From: Bacillota bacterium
GTDB taxonomy: Bacteria; Bacillota; Clostridia; Christensenellales; CAMQZB01
NCBI GenBank assembly: GCA_044426085.1
Contig: JAWXUU010000001.1
Span: 15,084 to 79,083 of the forward strand
Direction: 5' to 3'
DNA: 64,000 nucleotides
Below the pieces are notes generated by a model. That model was not told the origin of the DNA and searched no databases. It saw nothing but the letters and a program-made list of their open reading frames with translations. Shown in pieces: positions 13,962 to 17,919 of the stretch; position 1 is the first letter of the stretch, and each line of letters starts with the position of its first letter. A program made the position numbers and the translations under genes.

Positions 13962-15353
13962 TCAATTATGTTTATTTTTATATTGTTCAGAACGCTTCTC
14001 ATTCTGTTCCTTGCTAGTGAATACCATTTTTTCTAGTGTTCCACCAAGAATATATTTCTTATCGCATTGCAAATCTTTTACAATGTTTTTTCCAATCAAC
14101 CTGCCTATATCACTTATAAGCGCCCTCACCCCAAAAGCTGTTGCGCCATATTTTTTAACAACATCTTTACGTATTGAGCTTTTAATATTAGCTATTTCAA
14201 TCCCGTATTCTTTGGCACTGTTTTTTATTGCGATATTCATGATTTCATGCATATCTTCTTTTGACAGCTGCCTATACTCAACAAAATATCCGATACGGCT
14301 GGCAATCTCTGGCTTAAATCCGTTATCTACCATTGTTTGGCGACATTCATCACTTCTGCTTTGTTGGGTTTTTAAAACTTCCGTAGATTCAACGTTGATG
14401 CCACAGGCAAATCCTACGTTAGATTTCTTATCAGTTTTGATATTGGAAGTAAGCATGATTATACATCTTGAACAATCATATTCAGAGACACCGTTCTCAT
14501 CTGCTCTTGCTAGCGTTATGACTCCGTTATCAAATATACTCATCAATGCGACGTGAATGTTTGAATGTGCTTTTTCATATTCGTCAAGTAAGATTATAAG
14601 TGAATTCGTTTTACGTATTGGTTCAAGCACCGTCTTATCATCATACCCAGCATATCCCGCCGGAGAGCCGAAAAGCTGTGAAATACGATATTCTTCCGTA
14701 TATTCATTGCAGTTTATCGTGATTACTTTGTTATCAAATCCACAATCTGCTTTAGCTAATTCCTCTGCAAGATATTTTGCTGTCGCTGTCTTTCCAACTC
14801 CAGTTGGACCTGACAACATAATGGATACTGGCTTTTTTGGATTAGGCTTCTTAAGATGATTGGAAACGCACTCAACAACCTGCTCAAGTTGATTGTCTTG
14901 TCCCACAATTTTTGATTTGAGATTTCTTGTTATATTATCGCTATCAATATAGCATGCACCGTATTTTTTTTGTGTGTTCTTACGTTTATCATTTTCATCA
15001 TCATATTCATAATCATCGTCTTCAAAACCATACCGCATACAATATTTTGCATAGTTATAATTGAATTTTATTTCATCAAACAATTCGACTATATCATATT
15101 CTGAACCGCAAAAGATTTTGCCATATGTAGAAAGAATAAGAATGCTTCGACACTTGCCAAAGTAACACATATCATAATGACTTTTTTGTGCTAGATAAAC
15201 GCATATTCCATTATTTCCTGATGTTTCAAATACCAATTCCGTTTCCTCATCCAAAAAATTAACGCTGTATTTAATTCGCCTAGGATTCCCCGCTGTAAGT
15301 TTTCTCCAAATATCTTGATCGACGATATTCTTTTTAATAAAGAATTTTTCCAT
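13962..15353 (-). CDS. AAA+ ATPase of the Clp/Hsp100 D2 type with an unknown N-terminal domain
   Basis: IVGQDNQLEQV...KPVSIMLSGPTGVGKTATAKYLAEELA; ITINCNEYTEEYRISQLFGSPAGYAGYDD; Walker B LIILLDEYEKAHSNIHVALMSIFDNGVIT; IIMLTSN. ATG 15353 is preferred (AAAGGAGGA 7 nt upstream). The track start at 15443 lies inside a hairpin. Confidence 0.8.
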   Translation of the reverse strand: MEKFFIKKNIVDQDIWRKLTAGNPRRIKYSVNFLDEETELVFETSGNNGICVYLAQKSHYDMCYFGKCRSILILSTYGKIFCGSEYDIVELFDEIKFNYNYAKYCMRYGFEDDDYEYDDENDKRKNTQKKYGACYIDSDNITRNLKSKIVGQDNQLEQVVECVSNHLKKPNPKKPVSIMLSGPTGVGKTATAKYLAEELAKADCGFDNKVITINCNEYTEEYRISQLFGSPAGYAGYDDKTVLEPIRKTNSLIILLDEYEKAHSNIHVALMSIFDNGVITLARADENGVSEYDCSRCIIMLTSNIKTDKKSNVGFACGINVESTEVLKTQQSRSDECRQTMVDNGFKPEIASRIGYFVEYRQLSKEDMHEIMNIAIKNSAKEYGIEIANIKSSIRKDVVKKYGATAFGVRALISDIGRLIGKNIVKDLQCDKKYILGGTLEKMVFTSKEQNEKRSEQYKNKHN

Positions 15354-15416
15354 GTAATCCTCCTTTGAATACACACTTATTCTTATAACGCAATATTTTT
15401 TGCCGTTGGTTGAGTA

Positions 15417-15449
15417 AGCTAGGTGCACATTTTTCATGTGCACCTAGCT
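15417..15449. other. Strong 14-bp-stem intercistronic hairpin between the Hsp70-like and AAA+ genes
   Basis: agctaggtgcacat-ttttc-atgtgcacctagct, 8 nt after the Hsp70-like stop. No U-tract follows on the transcribed strand. Confidence 0.7.
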
Positions 15450-15456
15450 GTTTCAA

Positions 15457-17010
15457 TTACATCGCATGTGTTTGCGATTCTTCTCTGTGTGGTATTCTGT
15501 TGCCTTTTTTATCATGAAGAGTTATATCGATGGTAGAGTTATGCATTTTTAGAGTTATGTCAAACGCAAACTTATGCGATTTTTCTCCGAACCATGCTTT
15601 ATAATATTTCTTTGGCACATCGATAGTGCATTTTGAACCATGCATTTTTGCATATTCGACAGGAACAACCTGCTTGGTTGAATCGTTTTCAAAAACTTCG
15701 ATTGTGACCACTTCTTGTTTTTTCTCGTATGGAATAAATTTTCCATCACTTTTGACTTCAACCCCACCACAGAGATTATCAATAGGTGAACCTTTGATGA
15801 TGATATTGCTTATATATGGGCCCTCATCACTTCTGCAAAGCACGCCATATGAATGTTGAATCACATCGCTGATTTTTGATGATACATAGTTTGTTTTGAA
15901 ATATGAATAGTATGCATTCCCAAGAGCGATTGCCTCGCTTGGCTTAAATGCAACTATATTTGATTCGCTAACTCTGCTTTTGAATTTGCGAATCATCATA
16001 TTTCTCACCATTGGCATTGCAGATGCACCGCCGACAAGCACAATTTTATCTATTCTTCCAGAATATTCTTTCATGCAGCTATCAACCACAGCTTCGATTT
16101 TCTTTAGTTCTGCACTGCTTTCACTTTCAAATTGAGTTCGTGAAATTGTCAAGAAGTCGTCGTCGCCTTTTGGAATGGTTGCAAACTGCTCGTTTGAAAG
16201 AATGTGTTTTGCTCTGTGAATATCATCTTCAAACCTAGAAATCTCCTCAAGAGTTGCATTTTTGCTAATACCGCCCTTGCTCTTTGCCATATTTTGCAAT
16301 ATTGTATCGAAATTTCTTCCACCAATTGCAATGTCGCCATAGCATTTTATTACATTTATTCTATCACCCGACCTTTCAACGATTGCAACGTCTGTTGTGC
16401 CCGCACCTACGTCTAGCACCAACACTATTTGATTTCCCATAACTAGCGAATCTTTCACGTATGCAAATGCGGCTGCTTTTGGCTCTTCGATAATATGAAT
16501 TCTTTCCATTGCAATTCCAGTGGCTTCACTTATACCTTTCAAAATATATTTATTATATTCCGAAGCGGAGTTGCGACTGTTTTCACTGCCAAGACCAGCA
16601 GGCGTTGAAATAGTCAGTTCAATATCAGAATACCCTGTCGCCTCATCAACAAAGTGCATCTCTTTCATTTTCTTGATTGCTATATCAAGAGCGTACTTTG
16701 CAAACCCAATAACAACTTCATTTATCGAAAAAGTTTTGCCATTTGAATTGAAAACTTCCTTGTTGTTTAGTTCAAGATTTGAGATTTTACGTATGTCACT
16801 CTTGAAATACTTAATCACCGATTTTTGATTCCTTTCTGCATTTGCTATTTCTAAGGATTCATTGCCAAAAATAAGCGTTCCTTTATTATGAGAATAGTAG
16901 GCAACACTCTTATCTTCTGCGACTATTCTCGCATGCTCGCCAACTGTGATTGCTACACTTGAATTTTCATTCCCTAGGTCTATGCCTACGTTATAAGTTT
17001 TGTTATTCAT
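15457..17010 (-). CDS. Hsp70/DnaK-family ATPase with a beta-sandwich-like C-terminus and no helical lid
   Basis: VGIDLGNENSSVA (phosphate-1, TT to NE), IIEEPKAAAFAY, VLDVGAGTTDVAIV and IVLVGGASAMPMV. The C-terminal 130 aa resemble SBD-beta. The protein ends at 517 aa. Confidence 0.8.
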   Translation of the reverse strand: MNNKTYNVGIDLGNENSSVAITVGEHARIVAEDKSVAYYSHNKGTLIFGNESLEIANAERNQKSVIKYFKSDIRKISNLELNNKEVFNSNGKTFSINEVVIGFAKYALDIAIKKMKEMHFVDEATGYSDIELTISTPAGLGSENSRNSASEYNKYILKGISEATGIAMERIHIIEEPKAAAFAYVKDSLVMGNQIVLVLDVGAGTTDVAIVERSGDRINVIKCYGDIAIGGRNFDTILQNMAKSKGGISKNATLEEISRFEDDIHRAKHILSNEQFATIPKGDDDFLTISRTQFESESSAELKKIEAVVDSCMKEYSGRIDKIVLVGGASAMPMVRNMMIRKFKSRVSESNIVAFKPSEAIALGNAYYSYFKTNYVSSKISDVIQHSYGVLCRSDEGPYISNIIIKGSPIDNLCGGVEVKSDGKFIPYEKKQEVVTIEVFENDSTKQVVPVEYAKMHGSKCTIDVPKKYYKAWFGEKSHKFAFDITLKMHNSTIDITLHDKKGNRIPHREESQTHAM

Positions 17011-17070
17011 TTTTTATCCTCCATGTTTTTATAAAACGCTTTTCTTAGCGTATGGTTACTTGATTGAATA

Positions 17071-17919
17071 TCAGTTATTCAAAACATAAACTGATACTCT
17101 TGCTTTCAAAATTGTATTATCGGGAAATACTGCACCATAACTTGCAAACTCTGCAATAGTTCCATTCAATTTCGGTTTATTTGTGCTCACAGACTGAATC
17201 ATTTCATGAAAAACTGAATCATATTTATCCCCAGTCTTCACTTCAACAAGTCTTATCTTGTGCACACTGAGCTCATTCACTATACGTGTGTGGTTAGGGC
17301 TTGGCAACATTCGAATTATGTTTGTGATGAATTCTTTACTGCCAAGTTTATCTTTTGATTCATATTCGTGCATATAGAATGCAAGCTGCCTTTTCAGATC
17401 TACCGCTTCATTGTTTGAATATTTTTTTATTTGCCATTCAAGATGCGCCTTTTGGGTTTGCAATTCAGCAACTTCTTGATTTAGCTCTTTTATTTGAGAC
17501 ACAAGCATGTTTGCTGCTTTTTCTTCATCACTTTGAACACGTTTTTCAGGTTTTTCTTTTTTTGCTGTCACAATATATGCAATCAAACCTAATGATAAAG
17601 GAATGCACACAATCAAGAGAGCTTTCAAAAGGGCTGCGGTCGTTACTGACAAGCCATCTTCTGAAGTGACTTCTTCTGTTTCTTCAATAGTCAAATCCTC
17701 TTCTGTGTGATCATCATCAGCAATTTCGTCTGTTGTTGCATAGATATATTCGACTACTTCTTCCACATCATCAATAGCTACATCAGATATTAAAATCGCA
17801 TCGCTTTCCAAGATATTATCATCAGCATAGACATTGATTGCATTAATGCCATTAAGCATGACGCATAATGCCAAAACTATTCCAAGTATATATTTGTTAG
17901 GTTTTATGTTATGTTTCAT
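17071..17919 (-). CDS. Membrane protein with signal peptide, acidic ectodomain, TM helix and cytoplasmic coiled coil; possible GrpE-like C-terminal domain
   Basis: Signal-like N-terminus and a TM helix ALLIVCIPLSLGLIAYIV. The coiled coil VSQIKELNQEVAELQTQKAHLEWQI is followed by KEFITNIIRMLPS and GDKYDSVFHEMIQ...GTIAEFASYGAVFPDNTILKARVSVYV. These resemble GrpE EKFINELLPVIDSL and DPNVHQAI...QKGYTLNGRTIRAAMVTV (recalled E. coli sequence). Confidence 0.45.
   Translation of the reverse strand: MKHNIKPNKYILGIVLALCVMLNGINAINVYADDNILESDAILISDVAIDDVEEVVEYIYATTDEIADDDHTEEDLTIEETEEVTSEDGLSVTTAALLKALLIVCIPLSLGLIAYIVTAKKEKPEKRVQSDEEKAANMLVSQIKELNQEVAELQTQKAHLEWQIKKYSNNEAVDLKRQLAFYMHEYESKDKLGSKEFITNIIRMLPSPNHTRIVNELSVHKIRLVEVKTGDKYDSVFHEMIQSVSTNKPKLNGTIAEFASYGAVFPDNTILKARVSVYVLNN

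Follow-up and report, generated by a model that had tools for sequence, protein, structure and literature searches.

A lidless Hsp70 and a GrpE-like partner form a conserved gene pair, accompanied by a single-ring Clp-type AAA+ protein in a conjugative element of a Bacillota bacterium

A stretch of 64,000 nucleotides from a Bacillota bacterium (Clostridia, Christensenellales; assembly GCA_044426085.1, contig JAWXUU010000001.1, positions 15,084 to 79,083), hereafter the window, belongs to a conjugative element of Bacillota type with a MobL relaxase, a membrane-bound type IV coupling protein (T4CP), a VirB4-like ATPase, and ArdC. Three consecutive minus-strand open reading frames (ORFs) of this element encode a membrane-anchored GrpE-like protein (17071 to 17919; 282 amino acids [aa]), an Hsp70 without a lid (15457 to 17010; 517 aa), and a single-ring AAA+ protein (13962 to 15443; 493 aa), in the array given by a preliminary description of this DNA. 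The Hsp70 and its GrpE-like partner constitute a conserved two-gene module, which we regard as a variant of the known Hsp70/GrpE system and not as a machine of a new kind, and the identity of the two parts can be assigned with high confidence. For the whole array, we tentatively favor a composite reading, in which the GrpE-domain subunit of an Hsp70/exchange-factor pair would set the location of the pair near a translocation ATPase, while a lineage-specific unfoldase would probably feed ClpP.

The 282-aa protein has two hydrophobic segments in its Kyte-Doolittle profile, at aa 10 to 28 (score, 2.13) and aa 100 to 118 (score, 2.46). The first lies within a predicted signal peptide (aa 1 to 32, 17824 to 17919; all coordinates of this protein are on the minus strand) that ends in NVYA/DD and is followed by an acidic extracytoplasmic stretch (aa 33 to 96, 17632 to 17823), where 23 of the 63 residues between aa 34 and 96 are aspartate or glutamate; the second forms a transmembrane (TM) helix (aa 97 to 119, 17563 to 17631), after which the sequence KKEKPEKR lies on the cytoplasmic side. 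The remainder comprises a helical stalk or coiled coil (aa 120 to 219, 17263 to 17562) and a C-terminal domain homologous to the GrpE β-domain (aa 220 to 282, 17074 to 17262). In this predicted topology, the C-terminal 165 residues are cytoplasmic whether the first segment is cleaved or not. The stalk aligns to the helical bundle of GrpE by hhalign and gives weak matches to coiled-coil chains, and an AlphaFold2 (AF2) model of the cytoplasmic part, computed from a five-sequence alignment, places three helices (model residues 13 to 48, 55 to 85, and 92 to 101; predicted local distance difference test [pLDDT] values of 55 to 83) before the strands, with a pLDDT value below 50 in the β part. These predicted features agree with the signal peptide, acidic ectodomain, TM helix, and cytoplasmic coiled coil that had been read from the sequence. 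A weak NCBIfam IcmG/DotF match on the acidic stretch (E value, 0.0022; cutoff, 200 bits) was taken as compositional.

Profile comparisons identify this protein as a divergent GrpE-domain protein, a homology that is well supported at the sequence level. The Pfam GrpE model matches aa 216 to 277 at model positions 104 to 163 of 165 (E value, 0.0015; 18.7 bits), and the same model matches an 82%-identical relative with an E value of 1.7e-4. A local jackhmmer search started from the window sequence converged and did not reach canonical GrpE, so that profile-profile comparison was needed to establish the link, and the cytoplasmic part was used for the profiles in place of the full-length protein. 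The resulting family profile (A2) aligns in register with the GrpE proteins of Escherichia coli, Geobacillus, and human (P = 2.6e-4; probability, 42%), and with GrpE proteins encoded upstream of other odd Hsp70s (probability, 96%; E value, 3e-9; 64 columns); this comparison set consisted of four GrpE proteins, of which two, when scanned, pass the Pfam cutoff (from locus L019 with 45 bits and from locus L029 with 34 bits; loci are cited by our L numbers). A second partner subfamily, A7, matches the A2 profile with a probability of 96% and canonical GrpE with a P value of 2.3e-4. Sub-threshold Pfam GrpE matches, again in register and spanning most or all of the model, occur in partners from L013 (4.2e-5), L015 (0.0012), L147 (0.0019), and L071 (0.009). 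Because the matches are located in the non-coiled β-domain, they are not a coiled-coil artifact, and the profile-profile comparison together with the invariable adjacency to one Hsp70 family is what supports homology. The C-terminal motif from which a GrpE β-domain had been proposed is present, and the suggested profile comparison of the cytoplasmic part gave the in-register match expected of it. Word-indexed searches of 5.8 billion proteins returned only five relatives, and the contigs of distant Hsp70 relatives contain unannotated Hsp70-adjacent proteins with the same C-terminal pattern. Two other approaches were discarded: the full-length profile gave spurious matches to its ectodomain/TM part and coiled coil in the Protein Data Bank (PDB) (hemagglutinin-esterase, GpsB, and geminin), and phmmer with the single protein retrieved designed coiled coils only.

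The 517-aa protein matches the Hsp70 model PF00012 with 104.5 bits (cutoff, 20.6; E value, 5.6e-30) and consists of a nucleotide-binding domain (NBD; aa 1 to 375), a linker, and a β-type substrate-binding domain (SBD-β; approximately aa 380 to 508), and its family profile aligns with DnaK residues 4 to 449. As had been noticed earlier, the actin-fold motifs are all in place except for the phosphate-1 loop, which reads GIDLGNENS, with GNENS in the position of GTCYS in relatives and GTTNS in DnaK; the loop is not a sequencing error, since an 82%-identical relative has the same one, and residues K70, E176, D200, T205, and D207 are retained. The AF2 model has pLDDT values of 70 to 95 in the NBD and below 50 in the C-terminal domain. 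Because the C terminus is poorly modeled, the SBD-β was assigned by sequence profile; a profile of the last 140 residues matches only SBD-β chains of Hsp70s in the PDB, in two collinear pieces (best E value, 1.7e-5). The protein ends about 10 residues past the last SBD-β strand, as do all 10 aligned family members, and it therefore has no α-helical lid, in agreement with the earlier observation.

A family census, for which we scanned one genome per species and metagenome contigs, showed that the Hsp70 is part of a well-separated family (members score at least 317 bits with the family profile versus 241 bits for the next best protein) found in gut-type Clostridia/Bacillota and Methanomassiliicoccales. 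A GrpE-like partner gene directly adjoins the Hsp70 gene in all 15 of the 15 family loci with enough flanking sequence, upstream in bacteria and downstream in archaea, and a borderline family member on a viral contig (L147) has such a neighbor as well. The AAA+ gene, in contrast, is absent within about 10 kb in all other family loci. The conserved unit is therefore the pair and not the trio that had been proposed, of whose two neighbors the Hsp70 family keeps only the GrpE-like one.

The partners differ in what is attached to the GrpE domain. The membrane-anchored layout of signal peptide, ectodomain, TM helix, stalk, and GrpE domain recurs in the L001/L004 lineage, where a 790-aa partner carries a signal segment, four YDG repeats, a TM helix, the stalk, and the GrpE domain, with a soluble paralogue adjoining; most other partners are soluble and have extra C-terminal domains. 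In Methanomassiliicoccales locus L013 (11541 to 14627), an extended acidic linker joins the partner, within one ORF, to a membrane protease of the M48 (HtpX-like) type with TM helices (1.2e-27). In L014 (6465 to 9430), likewise from Methanomassiliicoccales, the M48 protease has an ORF of its own two genes farther on, and in L071 it is a separate gene 5 kb away on the other strand. The fusion was accordingly downgraded as evidence for a proteolytic connection, these being related genomes. No J-domain partner accompanies the pair: neither a J-domain hidden Markov model (HMM) applied to all frames of the window (best E value, 0.39) nor a search for the HPD tripeptide in window ORFs of at least 80 aa gave a hit, which extends the absence reported before, and the same HMM found no J-domain in 225 kb of family loci (18 loci) while detecting one beside an unrelated Hsp70 in L040. 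The cognate J-protein may be supplied by the host DnaJ.

Another non-canonical Hsp70 system was encountered in Bacillota metagenome-assembled genomes (L019, L022, L026, and L031; e.g., L019:8988-13172), in the order of a true short GrpE (183 aa; Pfam, 45 bits), a 543-aa Hsp70, a 659-aa Hsp70-VWA fusion, and two very large proteins, and in Actinomycetes (L029) a GrpE of 156 aa is encoded ahead of an Hsp70-like protein of 1252 aa. Odd Hsp70s may often come with dedicated GrpE paralogues.

The third protein of the array is a single-ring AAA+ ATPase (AAA_2, 3e-31) whose residues 170 to 490 match only the D2 ring of Clp/Hsp100 proteins, with the best PDB matches to Staphylococcus aureus ClpC (3e-32) and Enterococcus faecalis ClpE (7e-32), followed by ClpB/Hsp104 (about 1e-27). 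It has the D2-type Walker A motif GPTGVGKT (aa 212 to 219), Walker B (aa 285 to 290, with LLDE at 285 to 288), sensor-1 TSN (aa 332 to 334), the arginine finger R383, and sensor-2 GVR (aa 438 to 440) in the small subdomain, and the pore-loop aromatic residues that had been singled out for checking are present in GYAGY (aa 263 to 267). There is neither a D1 ring nor an M-domain. The N-domain (aa 1 to 170, 14934 to 15443, minus strand) is an orphan, as had been supposed: a search of 1.84 billion (1.84e9) representative proteins found no relative of the N-terminal 175 aa. The AAA+ protein was detected solely in near-identical copies of the element; IMG/VR contains no relative of it, none of the plasmid or viral records has the same architecture, and the acquisition of the AAA+ gene is specific to this lineage. 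In the loop after sensor-1, where we looked for [LIV]-G-[FL] as the mark of a ClpP partner, it has the tripeptide VGF (aa 343 to 345, 14409 to 14417, minus strand). HMMER aligns the window NVGF (aa 342 to 345) with NVGF of E. faecalis ClpE (residues 601 to 604), and MAFFT sets VGF opposite AGF of S. aureus ClpC and IGL of E. coli ClpA, while E. coli ClpB has no such motif there. The work on the ClpE-ClpP structure (PMC13125188) identifies 602-VGF-604 as the P-loop motif that docks on ClpP; in a GGR mutant, binding to ClpP is lost.

The preliminary description had placed the AAA+ protein in a canonical Hsp70-ClpB disaggregase arrangement. This reading fails, since the D1 ring and the M-domain are missing, ClpC and ClpE D2 rings score above ClpB, and NVGF occupies the docking position of ClpE. 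The M-domain is the Hsp70-docking element of ClpB/Hsp104; without it, the canonical Hsp70-ClpB contact cannot apply. Judged by its motifs, the protein is more aptly called a candidate ClpP partner with a single ring than a disaggregase of the ClpB type, and we consider its predicted docking on ClpP somewhat more probable than its absence.

The gene arrangement links the AAA+ gene to the pair. The GrpE-like and Hsp70 genes are separated by 60 nt and the Hsp70 and AAA+ genes by 13 nt; the AAA+ stop is overlapped by 4 nt by an ORF of 208 aa (13339 to 13965, minus strand), which matches no model of Pfam, NCBIfam, or PADLOC, and after 1 nt follows a VirD4-like coupling-type ATPase of 570 aa (11625 to 13337, minus strand; T4SS-DNA_transf, 3.6e-38; NCBIfam conju_CD1115, 2e-60), which has no hydrophobic segment in its hydropathy profile and is therefore regarded as soluble. 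A perfect 14-bp RNA hairpin (15417 to 15449, minus strand) begins 7 nt past the Hsp70 stop and encloses the AGGUG Shine-Dalgarno sequence and the GUG/AUG start of the AAA+ gene; its folding energy is -27.4 kcal/mol (z = -7.8), none of 200 shuffled sequences folds as well, and the mRNA strand has no U-tract after it. This suggests that the AAA+ protein is translated mainly once the stem has been melted by ribosomes that reach the Hsp70 stop codon, and such translational coupling would tie Hsp70 and AAA+ together in this element. A second repeat, a 12-bp inverted repeat (TGCAATTCAATT ... AATTGAATTGCA) at approximately 17975 to 18022, lies between the stop codon of the preceding Glug-motif gene and the ribosome-binding site of the GrpE-like gene; it has no T-run after it and may function as an operator or form a stem in the RNA.

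Translocation ATPases are recurrent neighbors of the pair. In five lineages (the window, L004, L012, L068, and L074), it lies beside an ATPase of the FtsK/SpoIIIE or VirD4 family; in the latter four, this is an FtsK/SpoIIIE-family protein of about 1300 aa, represented in L068 by 3' fragments only, where the contig ends. About 10 genes ending in the pair form a conserved cluster (L074:1217-11602, L068:2-8591, and L004:2-10996), which encodes, in order, the ~1300-aa FtsK/SpoIIIE protein, a ~200-aa protein, three helical proteins of 80 to 95 aa with a central W-x-D, a ~465-aa protein, a ~205-aa protein, the GrpE-like protein, and the Hsp70-like protein. The cluster is reduced in L012, where the large ATPase is retained, and persists as fragments in L016. 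Since Pfam gives only faint WXG100 matches to the ~90-aa proteins (E values, 0.008 to 0.34), the label of type VII secretion system (T7SS)-like is tentative for these clusters. In the window, the genes downstream of the pair are those for the AAA+ protein, the 208-aa protein, and the soluble VirD4-like ATPase; an FtsK-like motor is encoded farther on. BspA-type leucine-rich repeat (LRR_5) proteins are also encoded within a few genes of the pair in five lineages (window 10354-11475, L012:13401-15830, L017:5950-7832, L074:12995-21584, and L147:3148-3753); some have signal or lipoprotein sequences, which those of the window and L017 do not.

The composite reading would combine these elements as follows. 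Its core would be a dedicated two-gene Hsp70 system without a J-protein of its own, in which the GrpE-domain partner would act as nucleotide-exchange factor and would also decide where the lidless Hsp70 works. The type I membrane partner found here would hold and recycle Hsp70 at the inner face of the membrane through its stalk and β-domain, and this element alone would have added a ClpC/ClpE D2-type single-ring unfoldase with an orphan substrate or adaptor domain and a putative ClpP-docking VGF loop. Hsp70 would grip extended protein segments at the membrane, the GrpE-like anchor would reset it, and the client would pass either to an FtsK/VirD4-family translocation ATPase or to the AAA+ protein for unfolding and degradation by the host ClpP. 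A membrane-proximal substrate-handling role of the pair is plausible.

Several observations weigh against parts of this scheme. The Pfam score of 18.7 bits falls below the 25.8-bit gathering cutoff of PF01025, the position of E. coli GrpE R183 is a leucine in the GrpE-like protein, and the AF2 model is of low confidence (pLDDT, 55 overall), with no match below an E value of 0.78 in a Foldseek search against the PDB, although a failed search with such a model counts neither for nor against a GrpE fold. In the Hsp70, the phosphate-1 asparagine replaces a threonine conserved in Hsp70s, a substitution that may alter ATP coupling. The VGF motif is just three residues long, there is no ClpP gene within the window, and, with the AAA+ protein confined to a single lineage, only operon structure connects it with the pair. 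No translocation ATPase lies within 10 kb of the pair in L015 to L017 and the archaeal loci.

Other functions have to be weighed against the composite reading. The trio might constitute an unfold-and-feed machine, as the preliminary description had proposed, in which Hsp70 and the AAA+ protein would unfold the relaxase or effectors and the VirD4-like ATPase would deliver them to the type IV secretion system (T4SS), without ClpP. The trio does lie in one compact operon together with the soluble VirD4-like ATPase, which is two genes away; the element has a T4SS, a relaxase, and, in its membrane T4CP, a second coupling protein; and relatives of the pair occur in clusters headed by FtsK/SpoIIIE-family ATPases, so that a feeding machine for a secretion ATPase gains some comparative support from the ATPase-adjacent pairs in five lineages. 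However, the claimed proximity to the T4SS needs qualification, since its recognizable genes (VirB4-like, 45681 to 48443; T4CP, 58780 to 60882; relaxase, 60836 to 62149) sit 28 to 45 kb away within the window, the related clusters are faintly T7SS-like and not T4SS-like, the AAA+ protein carries a ClpP-docking motif, and it is missing from all relatives, all of which make this function unlikely. A related possibility, drawn by analogy, is that the GrpE-like protein would be the tether and exchange factor of an Hsp70 "motor" wired to FtsK/VirD4-family ATPases, a prokaryotic counterpart of the mitochondrial import motor of Tim44, Mge1, and mitochondrial Hsp70 (mtHsp70), with an ectodomain that would report cell contact or cargo and an Hsp70 that would pull or hand over polypeptides in T7SS-like or conjugative transport. 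The mitochondrial import motor, which includes the J-protein Pam18, likewise combines an Hsp70, held at the membrane beside a translocation machine with Tim44 as the tether, with a GrpE-type factor (Mge1), a likeness of analogy only; unlike in that motor, tether and exchange factor would here be one polypeptide, and there is no J-protein. We regard this version as improbable.

The pair might instead serve stand-alone quality control of membrane and secretory proteins, with the AAA+ protein as a degradative arm, and buffer the cost of the many large surface proteins of the element without any direct role in DNA or protein transfer. The VGF loop would fit such a system, as would the M48/HtpX-type membrane protease fused to the archaeal partner in L013 or adjoining it in L014, and large surface proteins (Glug, YDG, and BspA-type LRR) flank the pair in the window, L004, L012, L017, L074, and L147. 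The M48 linkage may, however, reflect shared synteny of related Methanomassiliicoccales, the L071 gene being 5 kb off on the other strand; BspA-type LRR genes are common in gut organisms, and most partners are soluble, so that we give this explanation a small probability. That the genes form an anti-phage or inter-element conflict system has less in its favor still and is doubtful indeed: PADLOC matches the AAA+ protein (PDC-M37B, 1.7e-32; DolB, 1e-26) and the Hsp70 (PDC-M61B, 8e-12), some relatives adjoin HEPN-helicase, CARF-HTH, or integrase genes, and restriction-modification genes are present in the window, but the PADLOC scores are no stronger than generic matches to the ClpC D2 ring or the Hsp70 NBD, neither DolA nor other PADLOC partner models match the scanned neighboring proteins, and contexts vary widely. 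Fitness cargo for heat or stress tolerance, in the form of a disaggregase set like ClpB, ClpK, or ClpG, is highly improbable. The best tblastn matches to the D2 part include plasmid-borne ClpK, and NCBIfam lists ClpB, ClpK, and ClpG; these matches all cover the D2 part only (62 to 64% of the query), and the protein has one ring, a VGF loop, no M-domain, and none of the N-domains of ClpG or ClpK.

Compared with known systems, the pair resembles DnaK-GrpE(-DnaJ) in its Hsp70 NBD with catalytic residues, its SBD-β, the stalk and β-domain layout of the partner, and the adjacency of both genes, as in grpE-dnaK operons; it differs in the missing helical lid, the absence of a J-protein from the locus, the GNENS loop, and a GrpE-like protein that is below the Pfam threshold and membrane bound with an ectodomain. 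A recently published overview of GrpE-like factors (PMC12987570) says nothing of forms anchored in the membrane. DnaK paralogues, such as those of the HscC type and "derivates" with shortened or deleted lids and truncated SBDs, are widely seen and have no assigned function (PMC13580251). The family described here is, like these derivates, an extra Hsp70 paralogue with a truncated SBD, but it has its own GrpE-domain partner at every locus and is often found in FtsK-ATPase clusters or mobile elements. Literature searches found no description of a module composed of a lidless Hsp70 and a GrpE partner. With the ClpC-ClpP and ClpE-ClpP systems of Firmicutes, the AAA+ protein shares the D2 ring motifs, the pore-loop tyrosine, and VGF at the P-loop position (ClpE 602 to 604); unlike them, it is a single ring without D1, M-domain, ClpC N-domain, or zinc finger and has an orphan 170-aa N-domain. 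An Hsp70 gene adjoining that of a Clp/Hsp100-type AAA+ protein recalls the ClpB/Hsp104-Hsp70 bichaperone, whose D1 and Hsp70-binding M-domain are missing here, and whose ClpB lacks the ClpP loop that is present. The single-ring ClpB-like ATPases DolB of Dodola and PDC-M37B likewise have a short N-domain and one D2-like ring, with similar HMM scores; however, there is no DolA-type partner, and the similarity is not above that to the D2 ring of housekeeping Clp proteins.

Almost every gene of the window lies on a single strand, and its G+C content is about 35%. A tblastn search of PLSDB with the AAA+ protein, the Hsp70, and the relaxase found no related plasmid, only generic Clp, DnaK/HscC, and MobP2 matches with identities of at most 32%, 27%, and 28%, respectively. 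A run of secreted-factor genes directly upstream of the operon (21171 to 24973, minus strand) encodes an SprT-like protein, a thiol-activated-cytolysin-like protein (1.7e-17), and an M6-like metallopeptidase with an N-terminal TM segment, followed by the 1042-aa Glug-motif surface protein. Three minus-strand proteins (9274 to 10332, 4194 to 5258, and 6141 to 7751) have an FtsK gamma (DNA-recognition) domain, a set unusual in a conjugative element: in one of them it is joined to an FtsZ C-terminal domain (FtsZ_C, 2.9e-11; FtsK_gamma, 9e-13), and another is an FtsK alpha/beta/gamma motor without TM segments. Also on the minus strand are MurB-like and MurA-like (EPSP_synthase fold) genes (1239 to 2252 and 2233 to 3963), the latter fused to a NUDIX domain and with its best local matches in loci of candidate phyla (Saccharibacteria and Parcubacteria), and a defense-type block (29840 to 39452) with a type III-like Res helicase with RE_endonuc, Bro-N, an N6/N4 methylase, and an SNF2-family helicase. 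Divergent from the long operon, on the plus strand, are genes for an HD_4 + TGS protein (26996 to 28462), which has a SpoT-like hydrolase architecture and no synthetase match, and an HTH_3 regulator (25860 to 26978).

The pair family provides a handle on the role of the DnaK derivates with truncated SBDs. What is attached to the GrpE domain varies from a TM helix with an ectodomain, through a YDG adhesin and possibly an M48 protease, to soluble C-terminal domains, suggesting that GrpE-type proteins can serve as targeting adaptors in addition to exchange factors. The placement of the pair beside FtsK/VirD4-family ATPases points to an unrecognized chaperone accessory of Gram-positive secretion and transfer systems, and the AAA+ protein is a candidate for a new ClpP partner encoded by a mobile element.

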